NCBI GenBank assembly: GCA_903845295.1
Contig: CAIMWV010000035.1
Location: forward strand, 924-64,923
Length of the DNA: 64,000 nucleotides
Direction of reading: 5' to 3'
Origin: Candidatus Staskawiczbacteria bacterium
GTDB taxonomy: Bacteria > Patescibacteriota > Minisyncoccia > Minisyncoccales > Staskawiczbacteraceae
In this document: one piece after another, positions 1 through 61,305 of the stretch
How positions within the stretch are numbered: position 1 is the stretch's first letter
Layout: the number at the start of each line of letters is the position of its first letter
The notes under the pieces: generated by a model
What the model was told of the DNA's origin: nothing
The model's input: the letters and a program-made list of their open reading frames with translations, nothing else
Databases searched by the model: none
Translations under genes and position numbers: made by a program

Positions 1-329
1 TCTTTTGAAAGAAAATCTGAAAGCTGGTTTTTAATCTGGTTAAATCCTTCTATCCACTTGTGGTCCTTCAATTCGGCTGGTACGTGCGATTCGGCCAAAT
101 AAATATTATCTAAAATCGGAATTATTTTTAAAATTAATTCTTCGTTGGCATATTTTGCAAGCTGGCCGAATTTTTCCATTTCATCTTTTTTGTAGTTCAA
201 AAAATCAGCTCGTTCCCTTTTCCAGCCGTTTAAATACTCCTCGCACTTTGCCTTCGCTTCCTGCAGCTGTTTTTGCAGTTCTTCAACTTCACCAATTCCC
301 TCTTTTTTATTTTTTGTATCTTCTTCCAT
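1..329 (-). CDS. grpE: GrpE nucleotide exchange factor (partial; start codon at 329, 3' end beyond window)
   Basis: Manual translation of minus strand 329->1 gives MEEDTKNKKEGIGEVEELQKQLQEAKAKCEEYLNGWKRERADFLNYKKDEMEKFGQ..., matching the GrpE N-terminal coiled-coil and RERADFxNYKKR signature. It is immediately downstream of hrcA, the classical hrcA-grpE order. Not in the ORF track because it is truncated by the window edge. Confidence 0.8.
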   Translation of the reverse strand, partial: MEEDTKNKKEGIGEVEELQKQLQEAKAKCEEYLNGWKRERADFLNYKKDEMEKFGQLAKYANEELILKIIPILDNIYLAESHVPAELKDHKWIEGFNQIKNQLSDFLSK

Positions 330-337
330 ATTAAAAA

Positions 338-811
338 TTAAAAATTCTCGAGCTCTCGCAAGAGTTTAGTTATGATATCCTCGTTATCCTCGCAGATTTC
401 ACGTGCCGGCCCTAAAATCGTCAAAGCCCTGAATATTGTGTCTTTTTCCGGCGTGTGGGAAATTTCAAGCATTTCGGATATTTCCATTAAGGATTTCATT
501 TCACGCTCTATTTGTTGGTGGGCCGTCCTAATTTGTCGCACAATAAAATCTGATAAATTTTGTTCCCCTTGTGAAACAAATTTATCGGCAAAATATCTGT
601 AAGCTTTTTTAGTTGGAATCCTGCCGGCTGATGTGTGCGGCTGTTCTATAAACCCTTCCTTGGTCAAAACTTGCAGATCGTTTCTTATTGTTGCCCCGCA
701 AACATCCAAATCCGTAACTTTTTTCAAAGCCTTAGAACTCACAGGTTCGTCTGTGCTTATATATTCCTTAATCAGAAAGTCTAATAGTTTCTCTTGTCTC
801 TGAGTAATCAT
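338..811 (-). CDS. hrcA: HrcA heat-inducible repressor, short form (157 aa; winged-helix N-terminal region only)
   Basis: The N-terminus MITQRQEKLLDFLIKEYISTDEPVSSKAL...GATIRNDLQVLTKEGFIEQPHTSAGRIPTKKAYRYF matches the HrcA wHTH domain. It ends 8 bp before the grpE start, so it is complete but about half the usual ~340 aa. Confidence 0.75.
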   Translation of the reverse strand: MITQRQEKLLDFLIKEYISTDEPVSSKALKKVTDLDVCGATIRNDLQVLTKEGFIEQPHTSAGRIPTKKAYRYFADKFVSQGEQNLSDFIVRQIRTAHQQIEREMKSLMEISEMLEISHTPEKDTIFRALTILGPAREICEDNEDIITKLLRELENF

Positions 812-853
812 TTATTGAATACGTTGGTATAAATTTTATTGAGCTTGCACCCT

Positions 854-922
854 TCATTGAAAAAATATATAGAAGGCCGTAATCAGAAAGTCTAATAATT
901 TTTCTTGACGTTCCGTAATCAT
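854..922 (-). repeat. Duplicated 5' end of hrcA (44 bp including the start codon), forming a 22-codon mini-ORF MITERQEKLLDFLITAFYIFFQ
   Basis: Positions 879-922 are near-identical to 768-811 (gtaatcagaaagtctaata...gtaatcat). Translation of the copy reproduces MIT(E/Q)RQEKLLDFLI. Confidence 0.6.
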
Positions 923-933
923 GTTTAGATAAT
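905..933 (+). promoter_or_regulatory. Sigma70-like promoter candidate TTGACG-N17-GATAAT reading toward the GC-rich island
   Basis: TTGACG at 905-910, a 17-nt spacer, GATAAT at 928-933 on the plus strand. It lies inside the hrcA 5' duplicate. Confidence 0.35.
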
Positions 934-948
934 AATTATATTTTACTC

Positions 949-975
949 TTGTCACTCTTGCCTGTCAAGTGCCAA
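949..975. promoter_or_regulatory. Weak CIRCE-like inverted repeat (TTGTCACTC-N9-AAGTGCCAA) upstream of hrcA
   Basis: Each half matches the CIRCE consensus TTAGCACTC-N9-GAGTGCTAA at 7 of 9 positions with the correct 9-nt spacer. About 140 bp upstream of the hrcA start. Confidence 0.3.
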
Positions 976-1662
976 AAATGAATTTGTACAAAAAAAGAGA
1001 GGCAACCCATTTCGTGCTGTGTAGCTCGATTTGAGTTGCCCCTTTACTGCATACCCGGACGTGTTTGACGCGCTTGCGCCGACAGAAATGGCCTAATGGC
1101 CAAGTTGGCTGCCAGAACATAAGCGGTCCGCTTTTCACGTCAATGGGATTTGTCTTTTCTTGACGGTGTTAAAGAACTTGTCAGTTGTGCGCGTGTTGGT
1201 CCGGCCCTAACCACAGATCTTAGCCGTGTGGGCTGGCGCGCACCCATGATGAGCGTTCACCTATCCCTCCTCCTTTCTGTTCCGGTGAAGTTCCGATGTG
1301 TTGTCGCGTGTGTGAGGGCAGCCGCTGTGCCTAAAGACCCACAATGAGCCCGACAACGGTTATGCCCAGATACTACACCAAAACGCCTAGAAGACAGCAC
1401 CCTTACGATCGTGAACCACGATCATTCCTCCTTGTCTAGCATCACCTTACCAGCCAATAGACCCGCTTCGGGTTACTGACAAGATGATGCGTGACAGTGG
1501 TCGCGCCGGCGCGTCATTCGGACAAAATGAACAAACTCGCGCAGACAGCCATAGGCGCTTTCCTCCCTTCTTTGCAGAATGTACAACAGTCTGCCAGCCT
1601 CTCCGGCTGCAAACCTCCAAGGCGTACCTTACGCCTTTATGTTACATATAGTATCACATAAT

Positions 1663-1696
1663 AAAAGCCCTGTCAAGCATGACGGGGCTTTTATTA
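1663..1696. terminator. Bidirectional rho-independent terminator (GCCCTGTCA-AGCA-TGACGGGGC flanked by A and T tracts)
   Basis: 9-bp stem with one G-U pair. TTTTATT follows on the plus strand and an A-run precedes it, giving a U-tract on the minus strand. Confidence 0.7.
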
Positions 1697-1711
1697 ATCT
1701 TATCAAATTTC

Positions 1712-2890
1712 TTAGCTTAATCGGCGAGACATTATAATAAATAATATTAAGCCAATCAAGGAAAGCGCTGCTGCATAAAATAGTGCAGCACTATCGCTTA
1801 TTGTCGTCCACAAAAGCCCGCCGATGATTCCGGCGCCTAACGAAGAAAAACCAATTGCCATGTTTAAGAATCCCTGGCCGGTTGCGAGTAGCTCTCCATG
1901 GAGCGATTTTGCAGCCAGCATTCTTTGCATGCCGTCAGTGGCGGCTGAATAAATTCCCAGAATAATAAAAAAAAGAGTAATTGCCAATAAATGAGACGTT
2001 AAAGCCAGCCCAATATAGGAAATAGCAGCCAATAAAAAACCGAGCGCAATAACAGCCCTCTCCCCTATTTTATCGGCTAATTTGCCTAAAGGAATTGCGA
2101 CGATAACAAAAGTCAAACTGTATACAAAATACATTAAGGGCACATCGGCGATAGAGCCGGCATCTTTGGCTTTCAGCAAAACCAATCCAATGGGCAGAGT
2201 CCCCAGCCCAAAGACAAAAAGCGCGCTGACAATAAAAATAAATTTTTTATGGGTTTTAAAAAGGCTCCAGTCAAGCTTAATTCTTTTTGCCTGCTTTTCC
2301 AATTTTTCAACTTTAACGTCTTTTACAAAAACAAAACTTCCTATTGCCAAAAGCCCCAGAAAAAATGCTATCAAAAACAGTGCTTTATATCCGTCTTTTA
2401 TCCAGAAGATAATCAAAAAACCCAATAACGGCCCGAAAGTAGCTCCCAATGTGTCCATGGCCCTGTGGAAGCCATAAGATAGGCCTAATTCCGTTTCTGG
2501 AGCTGATTCGGCAATTAGTGCATCTCTGGGACTATCCCGAAAGCCCTTGCCTATCCTGTCAATTACGCGAAGCGCAAAAACCTGCCAGAAATTATTAACA
2601 ATGACTAGAAATAATCTTGTTAAGGTTGAAAGTGAGTATCCTAAAACAGCCGGCCTTTTCCTTTCGCCTATTTTATCTGACATCCAGCCGGAAATTAACC
2701 GGAAAACGCTTGCCAGTGCATCTGCGGTGCCTTCAATCAGGCCCACAAAAAAAACCGGTGCTCCAAGCACGGTTGTTATGAACACGGGCATCACAGATTG
2801 CACCATTTCACCGGAAAAATCATTAAAAAAACTCACCAGCCCCAAAAAGAAAACATTGCGTTTTATCCCAAAAATTTTATCTTTTAACAT
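1712..2890 (-). CDS. MFS transporter
   Basis: 392 aa, about 12 predicted TM helices, MFS-type motifs (GxLSDKIGRR-like sequence GWMSDKIGERKRP). Confidence 0.8.
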   Translation of the reverse strand: MLKDKIFGIKRNVFFLGLVSFFNDFSGEMVQSVMPVFITTVLGAPVFFVGLIEGTADALASVFRLISGWMSDKIGERKRPAVLGYSLSTLTRLFLVIVNNFWQVFALRVIDRIGKGFRDSPRDALIAESAPETELGLSYGFHRAMDTLGATFGPLLGFLIIFWIKDGYKALFLIAFFLGLLAIGSFVFVKDVKVEKLEKQAKRIKLDWSLFKTHKKFIFIVSALFVFGLGTLPIGLVLLKAKDAGSIADVPLMYFVYSLTFVIVAIPLGKLADKIGERAVIALGFLLAAISYIGLALTSHLLAITLFFIILGIYSAATDGMQRMLAAKSLHGELLATGQGFLNMAIGFSSLGAGIIGGLLWTTISDSAALFYAAALSLIGLILFIIMSRRLS

Positions 2891-2976
2891 GTAAATTTTT
2901 TATTATATTCCATTATTTTATCATTTCTGGAGCCCATTTGTAAATAAAAAGCTGCCTCTCGGCAACTTTTTTATCT

Positions 2977-3225
2977 TTATTGTTTGTTTTCTTGATGCTC
3001 GTGGTCGTGATCACAGCAGTGTCCATGCATTTTTTCCTGGATTTTTCCTGTCCACCAATAGCCTGAGCATATCGGGCACCTTCCCTGGCGCATAAGCATC
3101 TTTATGCCGATTGCTAAAAAGATTATTGCCCAGAACAATCCCCAAAAATTTGTGCCGACAATAATGCCCATTGCGTTTAATAATAAAAACAACCCTAAAA
3201 TTATGAAAACGATTGCTAAAAACAT
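2977..3225 (-). CDS. Small membrane protein with a His/Cys-rich C-terminal tail (HGHCCDHDHEHQ)
   Basis: Two hydrophobic helices followed by a CxxC and a His-rich tail, suggesting a possible metal-binding protein. Confidence 0.45.
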   Translation of the reverse strand: MFLAIVFIILGLFLLLNAMGIIVGTNFWGLFWAIIFLAIGIKMLMRQGRCPICSGYWWTGKIQEKMHGHCCDHDHEHQENKQ

Positions 3226-3335
3226 GAATTTTCGAACGAACGAGGAAATTCATCCTGCGTCCTCAAGGGACGAAGGATATCCTTTGCGACGTTCGCTGTA
3301 AGTTAGCTAAATTGATTTATTATAACACCTGCAGC

Positions 3336-4838
3336 TTAAACTTCAACAAAAGCCTCTTCTCCTTTGTGCCCTTCGCGCATTTTTTCTTTAGAAACTTTTA
3401 TAAGCAAAGACAGCGCACTTCCGACAAGTAATAAAATAGAAGCCCAAATAAAAACTGGTTTGTATGCGTCTATTTGCGCTTTTAATATAATCAATTCCAC
3501 TGCCTGTTTATAAATTGCCGGGTTCGTAATTTTTATAACACTACGATAAGCGGTGTTCAAAACATTGCTGTTGGTTGTATTGGTTAAAATTGTGCCGAAA
3601 ACCGCAATTCCAAAAGCTCCGGCGATATTTCTGCCAAGAGCCAATATAGATGAGGCGATTCCCATTTCTTCGGTTGGAACGATAGCGGCGATTACCGACG
3701 TACGCTGGGCCATGCCAAAACCCATGCCAAAGGCCATTATTGAGAGAGGGATAATAACTGTTAAGGCACTTGATCTTGGGTCTAAATATGAAAATAAATA
3801 TATCCCTACGGCAGCCACAAGCGTACTGGCAAAAATTACATATCTTGGTTCTACTTTTCCAGTTAAACTTCCTCCTATTGGAGAAGCAATCATCATGAAA
3901 ATTGCCATTGGTATAAATAAATATCCCGTTTGTGTGGCATTATATCCCAAATAGGTTTGACAAAATACCGGAATCAAAAATACAGCCCCCATCATTGCCA
4001 TAAAAACAACAAAGTTATTTAAAAGAGTATTCACAAAAACGCTATTTTTGAAGAATTTAAGGTCAACAATCGGCTCTTGCGCTTTTGATTCTACAAATAA
4101 AAATATAATAGTAAATAAAATCGTAGAAATATAACAAATTATGCTCTGATATGCAAACCAGCCCCAGGCGTTGCCCTGGTCAAGAACTAAAACCAATGAT
4201 GAAAGAGCGACGCCAAGAGTAATTGCGCCCCACCAGTCAAAATGTATAGTTTTATGTTCTGACACAGATTCTCTTACAAAAATAAAAGCCATTATAAGCC
4301 CGGCAATTCCAACTGGGATATTCAACAAAAATATTGATCTCCAGCCAAAGGCGTCAATCATCGGCCCGCCTATCAACGGCCCAAAAACAACAGCCGCAGC
4401 AAAGGAAGCTGACCATAATCCCAGTGCCTGCGCCCTTTCTTTTCCTTGCTGAAAAGTTACAGCCAAAATTGCCATGGCTGTGGGATAGTCAGCAGAACCT
4501 GCGATTGCCTGGATAATTCTGAAAACAATCATTGAGCTTAAATTCCATGCAAATCCGGCCAAAGCTGACCCAAAAATAAAAATTGTAAAACCTAAAATAT
4601 AAACTTTTTTTCTGCCAACTGTGTCTCCTAGTTTTCCCCAGATAGGAACAAAAACCGCGTTAGCTAATATGTACGCGGTTGCAATCCAGCCGGCTGATAA
4701 AACCGTGATTTTAAAATCAATTATTATTTTTGGCAGGGCCAAGTTCACAATTGTCGAGTCCAATCTGCCCAAAAAAGTTCCGATAATTACTGTCAGCAAT
4801 ACAAGCCATTTAAAATTTTTGTGGTTTTCGTCAATCAT
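3336..4838 (-). CDS. DHA2-family MFS drug:H+ antiporter (EmrB/QacA-like, 14 TMS)
   Basis: 500 aa. N-terminus LDSTIVNLALPKI...GKLGDTVGRKKVYILG is typical of EmrB/QacA. Confidence 0.85.
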   Translation of the reverse strand: MIDENHKNFKWLVLLTVIIGTFLGRLDSTIVNLALPKIIIDFKITVLSAGWIATAYILANAVFVPIWGKLGDTVGRKKVYILGFTIFIFGSALAGFAWNLSSMIVFRIIQAIAGSADYPTAMAILAVTFQQGKERAQALGLWSASFAAAVVFGPLIGGPMIDAFGWRSIFLLNIPVGIAGLIMAFIFVRESVSEHKTIHFDWWGAITLGVALSSLVLVLDQGNAWGWFAYQSIICYISTILFTIIFLFVESKAQEPIVDLKFFKNSVFVNTLLNNFVVFMAMMGAVFLIPVFCQTYLGYNATQTGYLFIPMAIFMMIASPIGGSLTGKVEPRYVIFASTLVAAVGIYLFSYLDPRSSALTVIIPLSIMAFGMGFGMAQRTSVIAAIVPTEEMGIASSILALGRNIAGAFGIAVFGTILTNTTNSNVLNTAYRSVIKITNPAIYKQAVELIILKAQIDAYKPVFIWASILLLVGSALSLLIKVSKEKMREGHKGEEAFVEV

Positions 4839-13494: not shown

Positions 13495-14625
13495 TTAATA
13501 CCTCGCCTGTTTCTTCGTAATTCTGTTTACAGCTATTTCCATTCCCACGTCCCGCGGGTTTTTGTTTTCACTGACGCTTTTCTTCAATATAATCCTGACA
13601 TTTTTCGTAATTTTTTTATCTATTGTATCCATCATTCTTTTAGGATTATAACCGCGGTATTCAGCATAAGAAGAAATCACTCCTCCGGCATTAGCAATGA
13701 AATCTGGAACGACCCAGACTCCCTTCTTGAAAAATTCTTTTTCTATTTCTTCTGACATCGGAATATTACCTGCTTCAACAATCATCTTAGTTTTAATTTT
13801 GTCCTTGTTGCTATTGTTAATGACGTTTGTGACAGACGCTGGGATTAAAATATCTGTTGGAACCTCCCAAAATTTTTCAGCTGAAATTTTTTGGCCGTAG
13901 GGATAATCTTTCAAAGTTTTTTTATCTTTTATGATTTTTTCCAGTACTTCGTGATCAAATCCGCTTTCCTGGAAAATTGTGGTTTCCGCGTCAGCTAATG
14001 CAATAACTTTAGCCCCCATTTGTGTTAAAAATTTATAGGCGAATGTCCCTACGTTTCCAAAGCCATGGATGGCTACTCTGGCTCCGTTCATGTTTATTCC
14101 AAGAATTTCTGCCGCAGTTTCTGCGGTTTTTGCAACTCCAAATCCGGTGCTTCCATATTCATGCGGAATTCCGCATTTTTCGCCCGTCTTGCCGAATGCC
14201 TTCATACAGTAATTAGCCGGCTTGCCGGTAGCCGACCTCCAATCCCCTGTTGCCTCTACAAACCATTGCATTTCCTGCTCGCCTGTCTGGACGTCGGGAG
14301 CTGCAATATATTTTTTAGGGGTTAGCAATTTAACAGCCTTTGCAAAGCTTTGGACAAACTTCTTTTTCAGTTCAGGAGTTCCGCCTTTCCATATTATCCC
14401 GGCCTTAGCTCCGCCGAAAGGCAGATCAGCCAAAGCATTTTTAAATGTCATTGTCCTGGCCAGCCTGAAAACCTCCTCGGCCGTCACATTGGGAGTCATT
14501 CTGATCCCCCCTTTCCCGGGTCCTAAAACAGTATTGTCTATAACTAAAAAACCCTCCATTTTTAATTCGGGGTCATAAATATTTATTACATATTCGGGAC
14601 CAAACTCGTCTTTTAGGATTTCCAT
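13495..14625 (-). CDS. Glu/Leu/Phe/Val dehydrogenase family (glutamate dehydrogenase-like)
   Basis: 376 aa. Motif KGGIRMTP...GGAKAGI and NAD(P) Rossmann GFGNVG. Confidence 0.85.
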   Translation of the reverse strand: MEILKDEFGPEYVINIYDPELKMEGFLVIDNTVLGPGKGGIRMTPNVTAEEVFRLARTMTFKNALADLPFGGAKAGIIWKGGTPELKKKFVQSFAKAVKLLTPKKYIAAPDVQTGEQEMQWFVEATGDWRSATGKPANYCMKAFGKTGEKCGIPHEYGSTGFGVAKTAETAAEILGINMNGARVAIHGFGNVGTFAYKFLTQMGAKVIALADAETTIFQESGFDHEVLEKIIKDKKTLKDYPYGQKISAEKFWEVPTDILIPASVTNVINNSNKDKIKTKMIVEAGNIPMSEEIEKEFFKKGVWVVPDFIANAGGVISSYAEYRGYNPKRMMDTIDKKITKNVRIILKKSVSENKNPRDVGMEIAVNRITKKQARY

Positions 14626-56432: not shown

Positions 56433-56460
56433 ATATAAAGATATTCACTTGATTTGATAG

Positions 56461-56494
56461 TTCTCCCACATTTATCCACAGATTCCCACTTCAT
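56461..56494 (-). promoter_or_regulatory. Three direct repeats GTGGG-N5-GTGGA-N5-GTGGG (minus strand) with exact 10-bp spacing, just downstream of a TTGACT-N18-TATAAA promoter candidate (56499-56528); candidate MraZ operator
   Basis: CCCAC at 56465, TCCAC at 56475, CCCAC at 56485 on the plus strand. The arrangement resembles the GTGGN direct-repeat MraZ binding sites described in E. coli. Confidence 0.5.
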
Positions 56495-56605
56495 CTTATT
56501 TATAGTCCACTTTATGATACTTAGTCAACACCTTTGGCCAAAGACCTATTTTGTTCGTAAATAGGCCTATTTTTCCACCAGTTATCCACAGTTGAATTTT
56601 CGATA

Positions 56606-56618
56606 ATTGTCGCACAAT
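56606..56618. repeat. Copy f of the 13-bp palindromic motif (ATTGTCGCACAAT, perfect)
   Basis: Between two TTATCCACA boxes in the leuA / mraZ intergenic region. Confidence 0.7.
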
Positions 56619-56697
56619 GAGGGTTATCCACAAATTTGTAATAAAATAAGCTCCACCGAAGTGAAGCTTCAGCTGTTGAGGTTTTACACTCTAACAA

Positions 56698-58362
56698 CTA
56701 TGCTTTACTGCCCCTGTTAAGGGCACTTATAACCGCCTTGATCGAGGCCTGCTCGATGTTCGTATCTACTCCCGCTCCCCAACACATGCTTCCGTCAGGG
56801 AATTGAAGTTTGATATAAGAAATCGCGCTGGCCTCTTGGCCTGCTCCAAGCGCATGTTCAGCTTGATCAAGAACGCGTACATGGCAAATCTTTTCCAGTG
56901 AGCGGACGAATGCATCAATCGGCCCATTACCTTCTCCAGCCAACTGAAGATCCCTGTCTTCAAAAACAACGACTGACTGACAGTGGCATTTGCCAATTCC
57001 TGTGTCGGCCTCTGTATTGGACTGAAAGTGTTCGAGCCAGTAAGGAGCACCGCGCTCAACATATTCTGTCCAAAGCATTGCTTTCAATTCTGCGGATGTG
57101 ACTTCGCGGCCCAGAGCATCGATTTTCTTGCCCGCTATTGCACCGAATTCGCGCAGCATATCCTTAGGCAGATGGAGCCCGCACTCATTTTCCAGAAGCC
57201 ATGCTATGCCTCCCTTGCCAGATTGCCCGTTGACTCTTATCACTTCTTTATATTCCCGGCCGATGTCCCGAGGATCTATGGAAAGATAGGGCACATTCCA
57301 CGGAGCATTCCCGTCTTGGTCTCTTGCCCGCAATCCTTTGCGGATTGCGTCCTGGTGAGAACCGGAAAACGCAGTAAATACCAGCTCTCCGCTGTAAGGC
57401 TGGCGGGGAGGCACTTTCATCCCGGTACAGCGCTCATATATCTCGCGCAAAGAATCGATATCGGAAAAATCCAATTCCGGATCGATTCCCTGGCTGAACA
57501 AATTAAGCGCCACCGTCACAATGTCCAGATTTCCTGTCCGCTCCCCGTTTCCGAAAAGCGTGCCTTCCACGCGCTCTGCGCCTGCAAGCAGTCCAAGTTC
57601 TGTAGCAGCGACTCCTGTCCCGCGGTCATTGTGCGTATGAAGGCTTATGACTGCGCAATCGCGCCGGGACATGTTGCGGCAGAACCACTCGATCTGGTCT
57701 GCATGGACATTCGGAGTTGCCATCTGGACGGTATCGGGCAGATTGAGGATTATTTTATGTTGAGGCGTCGGCCCCCACACATCCATTACCGCCTCGCAAA
57801 CCTCGAGGGAGAAGTCTACCTCAGTCGCCGAAAAACTCTCTGGCGAATATTCAAAGGAAACTTCCGTTCCTTGAAGCCCTGCTGCATACTCCTTGACCCA
57901 CTTTGTCCCCTGCGCCGCCAGATCAACCACTTGCGGCTTCTCAAATCCAAAAACGATCTTGCGCTGAGCCGGCGAAGTAGAGTTGTATAAATGGATGGTC
58001 GCTTTATTTGCGCCAGCCAAAGACTCTGCTGTCCGCCTGATCAGGTCATCTCTAGCCTGCGTGAGAACCTGTATTGTCACGTCGCTCGGGATTAAGCGGC
58101 CTTCAATCAAGCGGCGGGTAAATCCGTATTCTGTGGGAGAAGCGGACGGAAATCCGATTTCAATTTCTTTGAATCCGCACTTGACCAGCATTAGAAACAT
58201 CTCTAGCTTCTGCTCGACGGTCATAGGTACCGCCAGTGCCTGGTTCCCATCGCGCAGATCAACGCTGCACCACCTTGGTGCTTTCGTGGTTGTCCGGCTC
58301 GGCCATTGGCGATCTTTGAGTTGAATGCCGTGAAACTGGATGTATTTGCCTGTCGGGTTCAT
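56698..58362 (-). CDS. leuA: 2-isopropylmalate synthase, long form with C-terminal LeuA allosteric/dimerisation domain
   Basis: HMGL-like TIM barrel (RDGNQAL...HTHNDRGTG) and C-terminal LeuA-dimer region. The gene is visibly more GC-rich than its neighbours and the GC-rich stretch contains many spurious overlapping ORFs on both strands in the ORF track. Confidence 0.9.
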   Translation of the reverse strand: MNPTGKYIQFHGIQLKDRQWPSRTTTKAPRWCSVDLRDGNQALAVPMTVEQKLEMFLMLVKCGFKEIEIGFPSASPTEYGFTRRLIEGRLIPSDVTIQVLTQARDDLIRRTAESLAGANKATIHLYNSTSPAQRKIVFGFEKPQVVDLAAQGTKWVKEYAAGLQGTEVSFEYSPESFSATEVDFSLEVCEAVMDVWGPTPQHKIILNLPDTVQMATPNVHADQIEWFCRNMSRRDCAVISLHTHNDRGTGVAATELGLLAGAERVEGTLFGNGERTGNLDIVTVALNLFSQGIDPELDFSDIDSLREIYERCTGMKVPPRQPYSGELVFTAFSGSHQDAIRKGLRARDQDGNAPWNVPYLSIDPRDIGREYKEVIRVNGQSGKGGIAWLLENECGLHLPKDMLREFGAIAGKKIDALGREVTSAELKAMLWTEYVERGAPYWLEHFQSNTEADTGIGKCHCQSVVVFEDRDLQLAGEGNGPIDAFVRSLEKICHVRVLDQAEHALGAGQEASAISYIKLQFPDGSMCWGAGVDTNIEQASIKAVISALNRGSKA

Positions 58363-58471
58363 GGCGAAATCCTTTCATTCGATCGGGTTGTTTGCCACAC
58401 TAAGATTGTAAAGGTGCTATCCCTTACACTCACGCCAAAATTTTCAAAAACTTTGGCGTGAGTGTAAAAAT

Positions 58472-58496
58472 CAAAAATCCTCCATCAGGAGGATTT
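58472..58496 (-). terminator. Attenuator terminator in the leuA leader (AATCCTCC-TGAT-GGAGGATT + UUUUUGAUUUUU on the minus strand)
   Basis: 8-bp stem followed by a U-tract on the leuA-sense strand. About 25 nt downstream of the leader peptide stop and 110 nt upstream of the leuA ATG. Confidence 0.5.
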
Positions 58497-58519
58497 TTGA
58501 TATAGAATTTATATTTGAT

Positions 58520-58621
58520 TTATATTCTTTTATCTTTATCAAAAACCTCCTGGCTTACCAAAAGCAGGCTTAACAACAAATTCAGCTGGAGGTTTAATTT
58601 TTTATCGCCTATATTTTGCAT
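58520..58621 (-). CDS. Leu-rich leader peptide (33 aa: MQNIGDKKLNLQLNLLLSLLLVSQEVFDKDKRI), probably leaderless or near-leaderless, upstream of leuA
   Basis: Manual translation of the minus strand. 9 Leu in a 14-residue stretch. The ATG lies about 7 nt after the -10 AATAAT of a TTGACA-N17-AATAAT promoter (58629-58657). Confidence 0.45.
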   Translation of the reverse strand: MQNIGDKKLNLQLNLLLSLLLVSQEVFDKDKRI

Positions 58622-58663
58622 ATGATGTATTATTGCAAAAACAAGTTATTCTGTCAACACCTT

Positions 58664-58676
58664 ATTGTCGCACAAT
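58664..58676. repeat. Copy g of the 13-bp palindromic motif (ATTGTCGCACAAT, perfect)
   Basis: 13 bp after the Clp-like gene stop and 7 bp upstream of the -35 box of the leuA-leader promoter. Confidence 0.7.
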
Positions 58677-58692
58677 AAAATAAAACACAATG

Positions 58693-61305
58693 CTAACCTT
58701 GCTTAGCCGGATTTACAATCAACTCAAAATTTTCCGGGTTGACTTCAATTTTATCCCCTTTTTTTATCTTATCGGATAAGAAAGCTTCTGCAACGGCATT
58801 TTCCACTTTATCCTGGATGACTCTTCTCATTTCTCTGGCGCCGAATTCCGGCTTGTAAGACAATTCAACGATCTTTTCTTTCAAAGGCTCGGTAATTTTT
58901 AAATCGATGTCTTTTTCTTTCAAATTTTTCTGGAGCGCCGATAAAGACAATTGAGCTATCTGCATTAAATTATCTTTTGTCAGGGGATGGAAAATTACAG
59001 TGGCATCAAAACGGTTTACAAATTCCGGCCTGAAAATATTTTTTTCGAAGATGGCATTCAATAATTTATCTTTTTCCAACGCCTGGTTGGATTCCACCTG
59101 TTTAAAAATCATGTCTGCGCCGGCATTTGATGTGCATATGATTATCGTGTTTGCAAAAACAACCTTCCTGCCCTGGCCGTCTGTTATGTGCCCCTCATCT
59201 AAAACTTGCAAAAAGAGATTTAAGATATTCGGATGGGCTTTTTCAATTTCATCCAGCAAAATGAGGGAAAACGGAGTTTCCCTGACAGGAGTCGTCAAAA
59301 GCCCTTGCATTTCTACGGGCGAAGTAGCTCCGATCAGCCTTGGGATATCTGAAATCGCCTGGAACTCTGACATATCGAGAGTTATCATTTTCTTTTCTGA
59401 ACCGAAATAAATTTGGGCCAGCGCTTTTGCGGTCTCGGTTTTTCCGACACCGGTAGGACCTAAAAATAAGAATGTCCCCATGGGCCTGGTTTTTGAGCTG
59501 ATTCCCATCCTTGCCCTCCTCATGGCGATTGATATTTCTTTTACTGCTTCTTCTTGGTTTACAATTCTGCTGTGAATCAGATTTTCTAAATTAAGCAAAA
59601 CTTCTTTTTCTTTAACTGCCATTTTACCGACTGGTATATTGGTTTTTTTAGAAACAATTTCAGCTATGTGGTGGGGCAAAACAACTTTTTCTTTTAACTT
59701 TTGCACATAAACAGCCGATTCGTCTAAAACATCCAGGGCTTTTTTAGGAAAAGGCAAAGAAGGCATATACCGCGCGGTCAAATTTACGATCTCGCGGATG
59801 GCCGGATACAACACCAAAATTTTGTGCGCATATTCTAATTCTAAAGCAGCTGATTGCAAAATATTTATTGTTTCCGCTTCGGTAACCTCCGAAACCTCAA
59901 CCTTTTCAAATAAATTTGCAAAGGAAGGATTCTCTTCTATATTTTTATGGAGTCCCTCATACGATGTTATGCCAATGAATTGGAAACTGGGTATCGGCAG
60001 GTACTTTGAAAGCATCCCGGATATGTCAAAAGCTCCTGCTTTTTGTACTTTTTGCCCGACAAAATTTTCAAGGTCATCAATGACTAAAATTACGTTCCCC
60101 GACGAAGCAACCTCCGCAAACATCTGGTCTAAAGCAGATTCCAATTTTTCAAAATCCGGTATTCGCGCGGCCAACAAAACAGCATCGAGCTCTACTACTC
60201 TTTTGTTATTTAATTGAGGCAAAGACATCCCTAAATAACATCTTTGGGCAAGAGCTTGGATTATACTTTTTCTGCCGGTTCCGGCATCTCCGACAATCAA
60301 AACATTGGCCAGACTGGATTTAGCCAAAATCACCTCGGTCTCCTCTATTTCTTTTTCATGGCCTATGATTTCCCTGAATTTCCATTTTGAAACAATTTTT
60401 TTCCAGTCAACAGAAAATTTGTCTAGAGTTATGGTATATCCGGATGAAAAATTTTTGCCCAAAGACCCTTTTCTCAATAAATTTTCGTATGTCCAAAATT
60501 TTCTGTTCTTTTCCATCAGATCTTCTGCGGAGTCTATCCATAAGGTTAAATCCTTGACATCTTCCGGCTTTAAATTAAAATCAACCAAAGTTTTTTTGAA
60601 AAAATCGTCTTCTGATGCTAGGGCAACTAAAATTTCCTTTTCCCCGATACTACAGTGCTGTCTGTCGGTTGAAACTTTAAGCGCAAGCTCTATTGTTTTT
60701 TGAAAGTCGTCTGAAAATGAATCCCCGGCAATATCCTGTTTTTGCATTTTTTCCAAATAATTTTTTATGTCAGCCTGCAACTTTTTAGGATTCAACCCCA
60801 ACCGTATGCAAATTAAGTTTATATCTTTGCTAAATTTTACAGCAGAATAAAAGAGCGAAGTTGAATTAATTGGAACTCTCTTCTTTTTACAAAAATCAAT
60901 TGAATCTAAAACAATTTTCGCTGCCTCAAAATTTAAAAATTCTGCCAGATTATAACTGGCTGGATGTGCGGCTGCATTCAAAATATCTATTTTATTTTCC
61001 GGCTTTTTAATTTTCAGTTCTGTAAACAAATCAATGTTCCAAAAAATAAGATAAAGAGACAGGAACAAAGCCAGCGTTTTTGCTGCAGAATATCCGGAAG
61101 TAAGATTTAAGAAAGAAAATCCTACAAGCAAAAATGCAATCAGAAACAGAATCAAAAAAACATTCTTTAAAATTTTGGCAAACTTAAATAAGGGAAAATT
61201 TTCCCTTCTTACTGCCTTAAAAATCTCTGTATTTTCTAAAGCAAAATTAAATGGCATACACTTAGTCCTATTGTTTAATAAAAAAATAAAATCCCGCTGT
61301 TGCAA
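58693..61305 (-). CDS. ClpA/ClpB/ClpC-family AAA+ ATPase with an N-terminal membrane anchor and a degenerate first Walker A
   Basis: Two N-terminal TM helices. Clp_N-like repeats. D1 GDAGTGRKS is non-canonical. D2 is canonical (GPTGVGKTETAKALA, sensor and Arg-finger regions, ClpB_D2-small). Confidence 0.7.
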   Translation of the reverse strand: MQQRDFIFLLNNRTKCMPFNFALENTEIFKAVRRENFPLFKFAKILKNVFLILFLIAFLLVGFSFLNLTSGYSAAKTLALFLSLYLIFWNIDLFTELKIKKPENKIDILNAAAHPASYNLAEFLNFEAAKIVLDSIDFCKKKRVPINSTSLFYSAVKFSKDINLICIRLGLNPKKLQADIKNYLEKMQKQDIAGDSFSDDFQKTIELALKVSTDRQHCSIGEKEILVALASEDDFFKKTLVDFNLKPEDVKDLTLWIDSAEDLMEKNRKFWTYENLLRKGSLGKNFSSGYTITLDKFSVDWKKIVSKWKFREIIGHEKEIEETEVILAKSSLANVLIVGDAGTGRKSIIQALAQRCYLGMSLPQLNNKRVVELDAVLLAARIPDFEKLESALDQMFAEVASSGNVILVIDDLENFVGQKVQKAGAFDISGMLSKYLPIPSFQFIGITSYEGLHKNIEENPSFANLFEKVEVSEVTEAETINILQSAALELEYAHKILVLYPAIREIVNLTARYMPSLPFPKKALDVLDESAVYVQKLKEKVVLPHHIAEIVSKKTNIPVGKMAVKEKEVLLNLENLIHSRIVNQEEAVKEISIAMRRARMGISSKTRPMGTFLFLGPTGVGKTETAKALAQIYFGSEKKMITLDMSEFQAISDIPRLIGATSPVEMQGLLTTPVRETPFSLILLDEIEKAHPNILNLFLQVLDEGHITDGQGRKVVFANTIIICTSNAGADMIFKQVESNQALEKDKLLNAIFEKNIFRPEFVNRFDATVIFHPLTKDNLMQIAQLSLSALQKNLKEKDIDLKITEPLKEKIVELSYKPEFGAREMRRVIQDKVENAVAEAFLSDKIKKGDKIEVNPENFELIVNPAKQG

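Follow-up and report, generated by a model that had tools for sequence, protein, structure and literature searches.

In a 64,000-nt stretch of DNA from Candidatus Staskawiczbacteria bacterium (contig CAIMWV010000035.1), hereafter the window, the 2-isopropylmalate synthase gene leuA is preceded by a 330-nt gap, and the question raised by this locus is whether the gap controls leuA and by what means. The gap separates leuA from a ClpC/ClpB-like ATPase gene (58693-61305), and all leader features described below are on the minus strand. An earlier note on this DNA had described a leucine-codon leader peptide and four alternately pairing segments in the gap, and had proposed that they follow the attenuation logic of the enterobacterial leu leader. 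That logic stood up in the computational tests run in this study, less clearly so for the window sequence with a ribosome at the stop codon, and the region is most likely a ribosome-mediated leader-peptide transcription attenuator, which would tie leuA transcription to the supply of charged tRNA-Leu. As read from the DNA, this interpretation is well supported by the anatomy of the leader (its elements, their exclusive pairings and the energies of these) and by the conservation and substitution pattern in relatives.

The promoter proposed earlier, a TTGACA and an AATAAT hexamer 17 nt apart, was confirmed on the minus strand. It matches the consensus at 11 of 12 positions, and a TG precedes the -10 box. 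The ATG of the leader open reading frame (ORF) begins 7 nt past the -10 hexamer, and no Shine-Dalgarno (SD) sequence was found upstream of this ORF in the window. The 33-codon ORF is present as claimed, with a leucine density slightly higher than had been stated: nine Leu residues (9, 11, 13, 15, 16, 17, 19, 20 and 21) fall within 13 residues rather than 14, and five different Leu codons are used in the run. Hence the window has a short ORF rich in codons for the amino acid of the downstream gene, which is one mark of the attenuator class. When the 330-nt gap was shuffled 5000 times with its dinucleotide composition preserved, no shuffle reached this density; the maximum was eight Leu residues, seen once. 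Of all 610 small ATG ORFs in the window, counting both strands, this ORF ranked first. Neither it nor the structures that accompany it are due to chance.

The four segments proposed to pair alternately were also recovered, and RNAfold and duplex energies showed that the three helices they form are mutually exclusive, as is characteristic of attenuators. Helix 1:2 has 8 bp plus 3 (-14.4 kcal/mol, including the short extension), helix 2:3 has 16 bp with one bulge (-21.9 kcal/mol), and helix 3:4, the terminator, has 11 bp, a 4-nt loop and a U-tract (-14.2 kcal/mol). An intrinsic terminator thus follows the leader ORF and precedes the regulated gene, which is a further mark of the class. The fold z-score of the whole leader against shuffles was -7.1. 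The features of the locus, together with the leaders of its relatives, are listed in Table 1.

Table 1. Features of the leuA locus in the window and of related leaders. Positions without a prefix are those of the window.
Feature	Position	Strand	Sequence, details or basis
Sigma-70-type promoter	58629..58657	-	-35 TTGACA 58657-58652, 17-nt spacer, -10 AATAAT 58634-58629
Leader peptide ORF, 33 codons and stop	58520..58621	-	MQNIGDKKLNLQLNLLLSLLLVSQEVFDKDKRI; read from sequence
Regulatory Leu-codon run, codons 9-21	58559..58597	-	UUA, CUC, CUG, UUG, UUG, UUA, CUG, CUU, UUG; sequence
Segment 1 (codons 9-12)	58588..58595	-	AAACCUCC; pairs with GGAGGUUU of segment 2; anti-antiterminator ('protector')
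Segment 2 (codons 23-29)	58537..58553	-	CCAGGAGGUUUUUGAUA; folding and duplex energies
Segment 3	58486..58502	-	UAUCAAAAAUCCUCCUG; partner is segment 2 (antiterminator) or segment 4 (terminator)
Segment 4	58473..58483	-	GGAGGAUUUUU, then GAUUUUU; sequence
Intrinsic terminator	58466..58498	-	AAAAAUCCUCC-UGAU-GGAGGAUUUUU and GAUUUUU; RNAfold, conservation
Second hairpin	58424..58467	-	15-bp perfect stem (arms 58425-58439 and 58452-58466); 21 bp at 95%
leuA, long-form 2-isopropylmalate synthase, 554 aa	56698..58362	-	NF002991, 800 bits (cutoff 455); TIGR00970, 716.5 (cutoff 697.4)
Terminator after leuA	56640..56669	-	AAGCUUCAC-UUCG-GUGGAGCUU, then AUUUUAUU; sequence
Leader peptide of L175			MENVIQKKINLNLLANLLLSLLLLGSSQEVFDK
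Leader peptide of L176 (Staskawiczbacteria)			MKKLGIKKLNLQLSLLLSLLLLPDHRRFLMKK
Leader peptide of L174			MNKNPLSLLSLLLLDKQSRGFLIK
Leader peptide of L177			Identical to window; one synonymous difference in the ORF
Type B leaders (sister clade)	L164:3750-3945, L166:3787-3932, L086:3768-3914, L089:3789-3938, L172:1977-2132		

Relatives of the leader were sought through LeuA searches of genomes, metagenomes and a protein collection. The nearest LeuA relatives are 63-79% identical and include metagenome-assembled genomes (MAGs) labelled Candidatus Paceibacterota (P0005 and L002) and Candidatus Staskawiczbacteria (L176), and the farther ones belong to Verrucomicrobiota, Spirochaetota and Desulfobulbales. 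The exact LeuA protein was found on seven metagenome contigs, but the leaders of these contigs are identical and hence carry no covariation information; the identical contigs L081 and L082 were likewise uninformative. A complete leader of the window type, with the pairing segments and with the Leu-rich mini-ORF that the earlier note had suggested looking for upstream of leuA orthologs, was conserved in four relatives (L174, L175, L176 and L177), so that the missing conservation which the note had named as a refutation was not observed. All four share the leuA-mraZ synteny, the full order leuA-mraZ-rsmH-ftsL-penicillin-binding protein was seen in L174 and L176, and the LeuA proteins of L174, L175 and L176 are about 70% identical to that of the window. 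The gene upstream of the leader varies: the window has clpC there, L176 an ORF of 140 aa and L174 a gene for a 1120-aa protein. The leader thus goes along with leuA rather than with clpC. No Leu leader was present at the Paceibacterota leuA of L002 (63% identity) or at L173, and the element is thus not universal for leuA in the Candidate Phyla Radiation (CPR).

The substitutions among these leaders follow what is expected of a translated Leu run that overlaps RNA pairing elements. Three of the four differences between the Leu runs of the window and of L175/L176 are synonymous Leu changes (UUG/UUA and CUG/CUA), and the fourth is a change from Val to Leu; outside the Leu run the peptide shows no conservation. 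As RNA, segment 2 (AGGAGGUUUUUGAU) is preserved in the window and in L174-L176 despite a differing reading frame, being read as QEVFDK in the window and L175 and, in the other frame, as RRFLMKK or RGFLIK in L176 and L174. This conservation across two frames is the signature of an RNA pairing element in the tail of the leader ORF. Helices 1:2 and 2:3 both form in L174-L176. In helix 2:3, a compensatory change from GAUA/UAUC to GAUG/CAUC, turning an A:U pair into G:C, was observed in L176, and L174 has an A-to-G change that is compatible with wobble pairing. Helix 1:2 is maintained in the relatives through C-to-U changes that give G-U pairs, and is longer in L175 (12 bp, -18.0 kcal/mol). The terminator is conserved in all homologs of the window type, with a stem that is invariant except for a top pair lost in two sequences. 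Because the MAFFT alignment of the leaders mis-registers the terminator loop, the helices were judged by duplex and constrained folds of each sequence, and formal covariation statistics would be weak at 4-5 distinct rows.

Several independent assemblies break within the leader region. The L163 contig starts at leader codon 21, and L167, L168 and L169, which come from different samples, start at one identical base 157 nt upstream of leuA. These breaks may reflect a fork in the assembly graph that arises from strain heterogeneity around the conserved leader.

For the working of the leader we infer a transcription start, translation of the ORF, ribosome stalling and a response to leucine as follows. 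Transcription would start at the leader ATG or within 0-2 nt of it, and translation of the leader would probably begin on a leaderless mRNA. Under a shortage of Leu-tRNA, the ribosome would stall in the nine-codon Leu run, covering segment 1 and freeing segment 2, which would pair with segment 3 on its emergence, so that segment 4 would be barred from the terminator and the polymerase would read into leuA. When Leu-tRNA is plentiful, the ribosome would pass segment 2 to reach the stop codon, and segment 2 would be either covered or re-captured by segment 1. With segment 2 sequestered, the 3:4 terminator would form, giving a transcript of about 150 nt that ends near 58472.

This scheme was examined in folds that stop where segment 3 ends, the point at which the decision falls, and in which 28 nt about the ribosomal A site were masked. 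When the A site was placed on a Leu codon, 12-16 bp of helix 2:3 formed before segment 4 was made in all four homologs (the window and L174-L176). When the ribosome was placed at the stop codon, helix 2:3 was blocked in L174-L176, with 0-6 pairs. Equilibrium minimum free energy folds of the full leader with ribosome masks gave mixed outcomes; they represent a kinetic decision poorly and were not used further, the folds up to segment 3 being the more relevant test.

A number of observations weigh against attenuation as proposed. In the window, a ribosome at the stop codon leaves segment 2 uncovered, and the mask fold keeps 15 pairs of helix 2:3. The stop codon of the window lies 14 nt beyond segment 2 and 4 codons farther downstream than that of L175, which exposes segment 2, so that termination under leucine excess would need helix 1:2 to re-form behind the ribosome. 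This recapture of segment 2 by segment 1 is the weakest step of the model for the window sequence, and helix 2:3 is more stable than helix 1:2 at equilibrium in all four homologs. The lack of an SD makes translation of the leader dependent on leaderless initiation, for which the basis is promoter geometry. Full homologs number four, and the covariation among them consists of one double change and several one-sided changes; the invariant terminator stem, lacking covariation, neither supports nor opposes the structure. The 3:4 hairpin was absent from the output of a simple terminator scan, so the terminator call rests on RNAfold and conservation. Finally, mutation of the leuA leader of Streptomyces coelicolor gave results inconsistent with classical attenuation, a finding cited in PMC1262725.

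The simple scan listed instead a weaker hairpin inside the leader ORF at 58547-58564 (CUUUUGG-UAAG-CCAGGAG, then GUUUUUGAUA), which is built from segment 2 together with some of the Leu run. Neither L175 nor L176 conserves this hairpin, and the output of the scan was not relied on. A second ORF, starting from a UUG after the AGGAGG of segment 2, was considered and rejected; its spacing is 3 nt only, and neither its length nor its sequence is conserved.

The association of Leu-rich leaders with leuA was surveyed at 145 non-redundant leuA loci from several phyla; a locus was scored when the 400 nt upstream held an ATG mini-ORF in which 5 or more of 7 residues are Leu. Such mini-ORFs were found at 44 of the 145 loci on the sense strand and at none on the antisense strand. 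Examples such as MQITSLALLLLLSTMPTRTAAEVGEM and MAIRLGLALLLSLLLALLKLERFERTSCVA precede long-form leuA in many MAGs of Spirochaetota, Desulfobulbales and Verrucomicrobiota (L006-L140). The survey bears on the possibility that promoter, ORF and terminator belong to a separate gene in its own right, for a small hydrophobic peptide or a small RNA (sRNA), with the promoter of leuA lying downstream of the terminator. The unit does have a strong promoter and a terminator of its own, a weak promoter-like sequence (TTTACA-17-GAAAAT, 9/12) lies inside the second hairpin, and Rfam returned weak sub-threshold sRNA-like matches, although these reflect a generic hairpin and terminator. An independent gene, however, would not be expected always directly upstream of leuA while its upstream neighbour varies, nor would Leu-run ORFs be enriched there as the survey found. 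The peptide is unconserved beyond the Leu run, with a frame that shifts over segment 2, and its hydrophobic stretch, at about 10 residues, is not long enough to form a membrane helix; the 16-bp complementarity of segments 2 and 3 would have no role. An independent gene is accordingly an improbable explanation.

A second conserved Leu leader, referred to as type B, was found in a sister CPR clade (L164/165, L166/170, L086, L089 and L172). It consists of a Leu-rich ORF (e.g. MIRYAQNLLALLNLRKKGGDFACV) whose ATG lies 6-7 nt past the -10 box and whose peptide has a conserved tail, GGD(F/L)ACV; the RNA is conserved, as is a terminator (CCAGCUC...GAGCUGGUUUUGUUUU, with GAGCUGG(U/C)UUUGU at the 3' side), and the leader has alternative helices of its own. 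Type B resembles the window leader in gene family, promoter-to-ATG geometry, Leu-rich ORF, AACCUCC element, terminator and alternative pairings, and differs from it in the sequences and arrangement of the segments, in its conserved peptide tail and in lacking a second hairpin. The earlier note had regarded the mechanism as unexpected at this locus, but it is no one-off: two CPR clades as well as Spirochaetota, Desulfobulbales and Verrucomicrobiota have Leu leaders ahead of this leuA family. In the type B locus L089, positions 1-3400 match 23S rRNA over 3400 nt for 2788 model positions, which corresponds to about 600 nt of inserted sequence.

The start of the leader is conserved in both CPR types. 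All nine leaders compared (the window, L174-L176 and five of the sister clade) have TTGAC(A/T), a spacer of 16-17 nt and a -10 box ending 6-9 nt before the ATG, with a predicted 5' untranslated region of 0-3 nt, and an SD-like match precedes only one of the eight homolog leaders scanned (L174). The promoter is likewise conserved in L177. Conservation of this geometry in nine independent leaders argues for translation of leaderless mRNA, and the synonymous change of Leu codons together with the fixed distance between the -10 box and the ATG argues that the frame is translated. The leader is thus probably translated from a leaderless mRNA.

These observations are difficult to reconcile with an incidental ORF beside hairpins that are switched by a trans-acting factor, such as an RNA-binding protein, an uncharged tRNA or a small molecule. 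The terminator/antiterminator pair alone would suffice for such a switch, and the ORF has no SD, but neither the maintenance of Leu codons by synonymous change nor the ATG held at 6-9 nt from the -10 box in nine leaders would be expected if the ORF had no part in it. A search of 58000-59000 against Rfam with E values up to 10 gave 41 matches, among which the T-box (RF00230) and other riboswitch families, as well as the leader families RF00512 and RF01743, were absent, and no T-box or riboswitch match was found in the homolog loci. At the gathering score there was no match for the leader in the window or in 11 homolog loci (both CPR types and three others), and the permissive matches are generic hairpin-plus-terminator noise, for example Phe_leader on the opposite strand with 31.7 bits (gathering 55). 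Control by a trans-acting factor is, on this evidence, slightly less probable again than an independent gene.

The leader might also work as the actinobacterial LEU element described by Seliverstov et al. (2005), which has no typical terminator and in which the Leu run pairs with the SD of leuA or forms a pseudoknot (PMC1262725), so that control would be translational. As in that element, the window has a Leu-run ORF upstream of leuA; the gene family, long-form leuA, is the same, and the predicted leaderless Leu leader is a further common feature (PMC1262725, PMC8079986). The base stem between the Leu run and the leuA SD, however, was not found, since the duplex was no better than that of shuffled runs in all four sequences (-5.5 kcal/mol in the window against a shuffle mean of -9.2 kcal/mol). 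The pairing model was rejected on these energies, and a canonical U-tract terminator is present and conserved, which leaves this mode of control the least probable of the three. Although the Leu codons UUA, UUG and CUU are common in AT-rich DNA, a chance ORF with chance hairpins has a negligible probability, being effectively refuted by the shuffles, the fold z-score, the 145-locus survey and the conservation of the design in diverged relatives.

Between the attenuator and the ribosome-binding site of leuA lies the second hairpin (hairpin 2), which has no U-tract on either strand. The perfect 15-bp arms reported earlier for 58425-58470 were confirmed, with the end placed a few bases too far (the correct end is 58466/58467). 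In the close relative L177, the stem carries a compensatory change, from ACACUC...GAGUGU in the window to ACGCUC...GAGCGU, in which an A:U pair becomes G:C. Hairpins of different sequence occupy the same place in L175, L176 and L167 (-32, -21 and -26 kcal/mol for the region, respectively), and no hairpin was found at this position in L174. Because pairing is kept while the sequence varies, the pairing of hairpin 2 appears to be selected, which favours a role as RNA (or DNA) structure and disfavours a sequence-specific operator. A terminator was rejected for want of a U-tract, and a dispersed repeat because the hairpin occurs once in the window. Our best guess is a structural insulator or a 5' stabiliser of the read-through leuA mRNA. 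A short motif, approximately GA(C/U)AGCAC-N-UUUA(A/C)AA, follows hairpin 2 at 58395-58423 and has equivalents in L163, L167 and L174-L176; it is present even in the hairpin-less L174, and its spacing is unfit for a sigma-70 promoter.

The leuA gene itself has an SD, AAAGGA, at about 58375-58370 and a terminator of its own, and is thus a monocistronic unit. It lies just upstream of a cell-division cluster, being followed by mraZ, rsmH, a small ORF (presumably ftsL) and a gene for a penicillin-binding protein. In the interval between the leuA terminator and mraZ (56433-56640), (U)GUGGAUAA and GUGGGA-like boxes occur as several direct repeats, similar to the GTGG-type repeats that MraZ binds at the promoter of its own gene.

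The earlier note had called leuA apparently foreign. In composition it is foreign: its GC content is 52% and that of third codon positions (GC3) 54%, against 35-40% and 30-40% in its neighbours, and GC3 of leuA is 15-20 points above that of the neighbours in all four genomes examined (the window and L174-L176). Lineages whose LeuA proteins are about 70% identical nevertheless have the gene at this place next to mraZ. It is therefore either a long resident or has been replaced repeatedly in place, and its acquisition is old or recurrent. The comparison of the window with L163 and L177, which come from other samples, points to replacement. The leader is 99-100% and the mraZ side 90-98% identical, whereas the leuA genes share about 80% of their nucleotides and 79% of their amino acids; the divergence sets in just past hairpin 2 and ceases about 150 nt downstream of the leuA stop codon. 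Two leuA alleles in near-identical backgrounds suggest replacement by recombination, and leuA appears to have been exchanged between strains.

The flanks, 93-100% identical between the window and L163/L177 around a divergent leuA, the GC3 excess, and the compensatory change and varied hairpins at the position of hairpin 2 leave room for a bolder reading. The promoter, leaderless leader, attenuator, hairpin 2, leuA and terminator might constitute a leucine-regulated cassette that recombines among Paceibacterota strains, with the leader and hairpin as its left recombination anchor and hairpin 2 as a new structure-selected module that acts in processing, in stability or as a second read-through checkpoint. 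We regard this as doubtful.

No leuB, leuCD or ilv genes were found among the 41 larger window ORFs scanned. The only related enzyme among these ORFs is a Glu/Leu/Phe/Val-type dehydrogenase of 376 aa (13495-14625), a possible link to branched-chain amino- or keto-acids. In the sister clade, the genes after leuA of L164 encode a RidA-like protein, a threonine dehydratase (PALP and Thr_dehydrat_C) and an aspartate kinase (L164:5977-9076), a hint that this CPR-like genome has a small gene cluster related to branched-chain amino acids or threonine.

Attenuation by leader peptides is a mechanism known for decades, and CPR genomes are generally thought to be without amino-acid biosynthesis. Our literature search found no report of leader-peptide attenuation in the CPR (Patescibacteria). 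The leader most likely represents a switch of this long-known kind in little-studied bacteria with tiny genomes, probably Paceibacterota, kept in their relatives, that would turn leuA on only when leucine is scarce. A conserved, apparently leaderless Leu attenuator in the CPR, if true, would mean that these bacteria couple transcription to translation, initiate on leaderless mRNAs and sense the charging of tRNA-Leu. The element would also mark leuA as regulated, which raises the question of the role of a lone, compositionally foreign leuA. Furthermore, the two un-catalogued leader families and the many leaders of Spirochaetota, Desulfobulbales and Verrucomicrobiota provide material for covariance models.

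Among known systems, the leader works like the classical leu attenuator and belongs to no catalogued family. Enterobacterial leuL (RF00512, Leu_leader) likewise has a Leu-run ORF followed by 1:2, 2:3 and 3:4 pairings ahead of leuA, and the likeness drawn in the earlier note holds for this logic; it does not extend to relatedness, as no homology of sequence or structure was detectable and no Rfam match was obtained at E = 10. Unlike leuL, the window leader has no SD, its ORF is at the predicted 5' end of the transcript, and an extra long hairpin follows the terminator. E. coli leuL has four consecutive Leu codons, and leuL precedes the leuABCD operon, whereas the window has nine dispersed Leu codons of five kinds ahead of a monocistronic long-form leuA. 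The Leu/Phe leader of Lactococcus (RF01743), a low-GC bacterium, works in the same way as the attenuator of Staphylococcus aureus, and both are SD-dependent ORFs ahead of multi-gene operons; RF01743 gave no Rfam match to the window leader. At the ilv-leu locus of S. aureus, a leucine-rich attenuator peptide is reported to repress branched-chain amino-acid synthesis (PMC5794164).

The actinobacterial leuA leaders, namely the LEU element (PMC1262725), leuL1 of Streptomyces lividans (PMC8079986) and the leader of Corynebacterium leuA (PMC5784534, PMC4046766), also have a Leu-run peptide directly upstream of leuA. Leu leader peptides ahead of leuA have been reported in Corynebacterium (PMC5784534, PMC4046766), and the ilvB leader of Corynebacterium diphtheriae is leaderless (PMC5784534). 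Leaderless Leu leader peptides upstream of leuA were identified by RNA-seq in Streptomyces lividans (PMC8079986), and in the present nine leaders the same arrangement is predicted from promoter geometry. The window leader differs from the LEU element in having a conserved canonical terminator, and shares no sequence similarity with it. On account of the conserved leaderless start, the actinobacterial leuA leaders are the nearest precedent (PMC8079986). What distinguishes the leader described here is the combination of this start with a structure-selected second hairpin, a Paceibacterota-like CPR host and a compositionally foreign, apparently exchangeable leuA.

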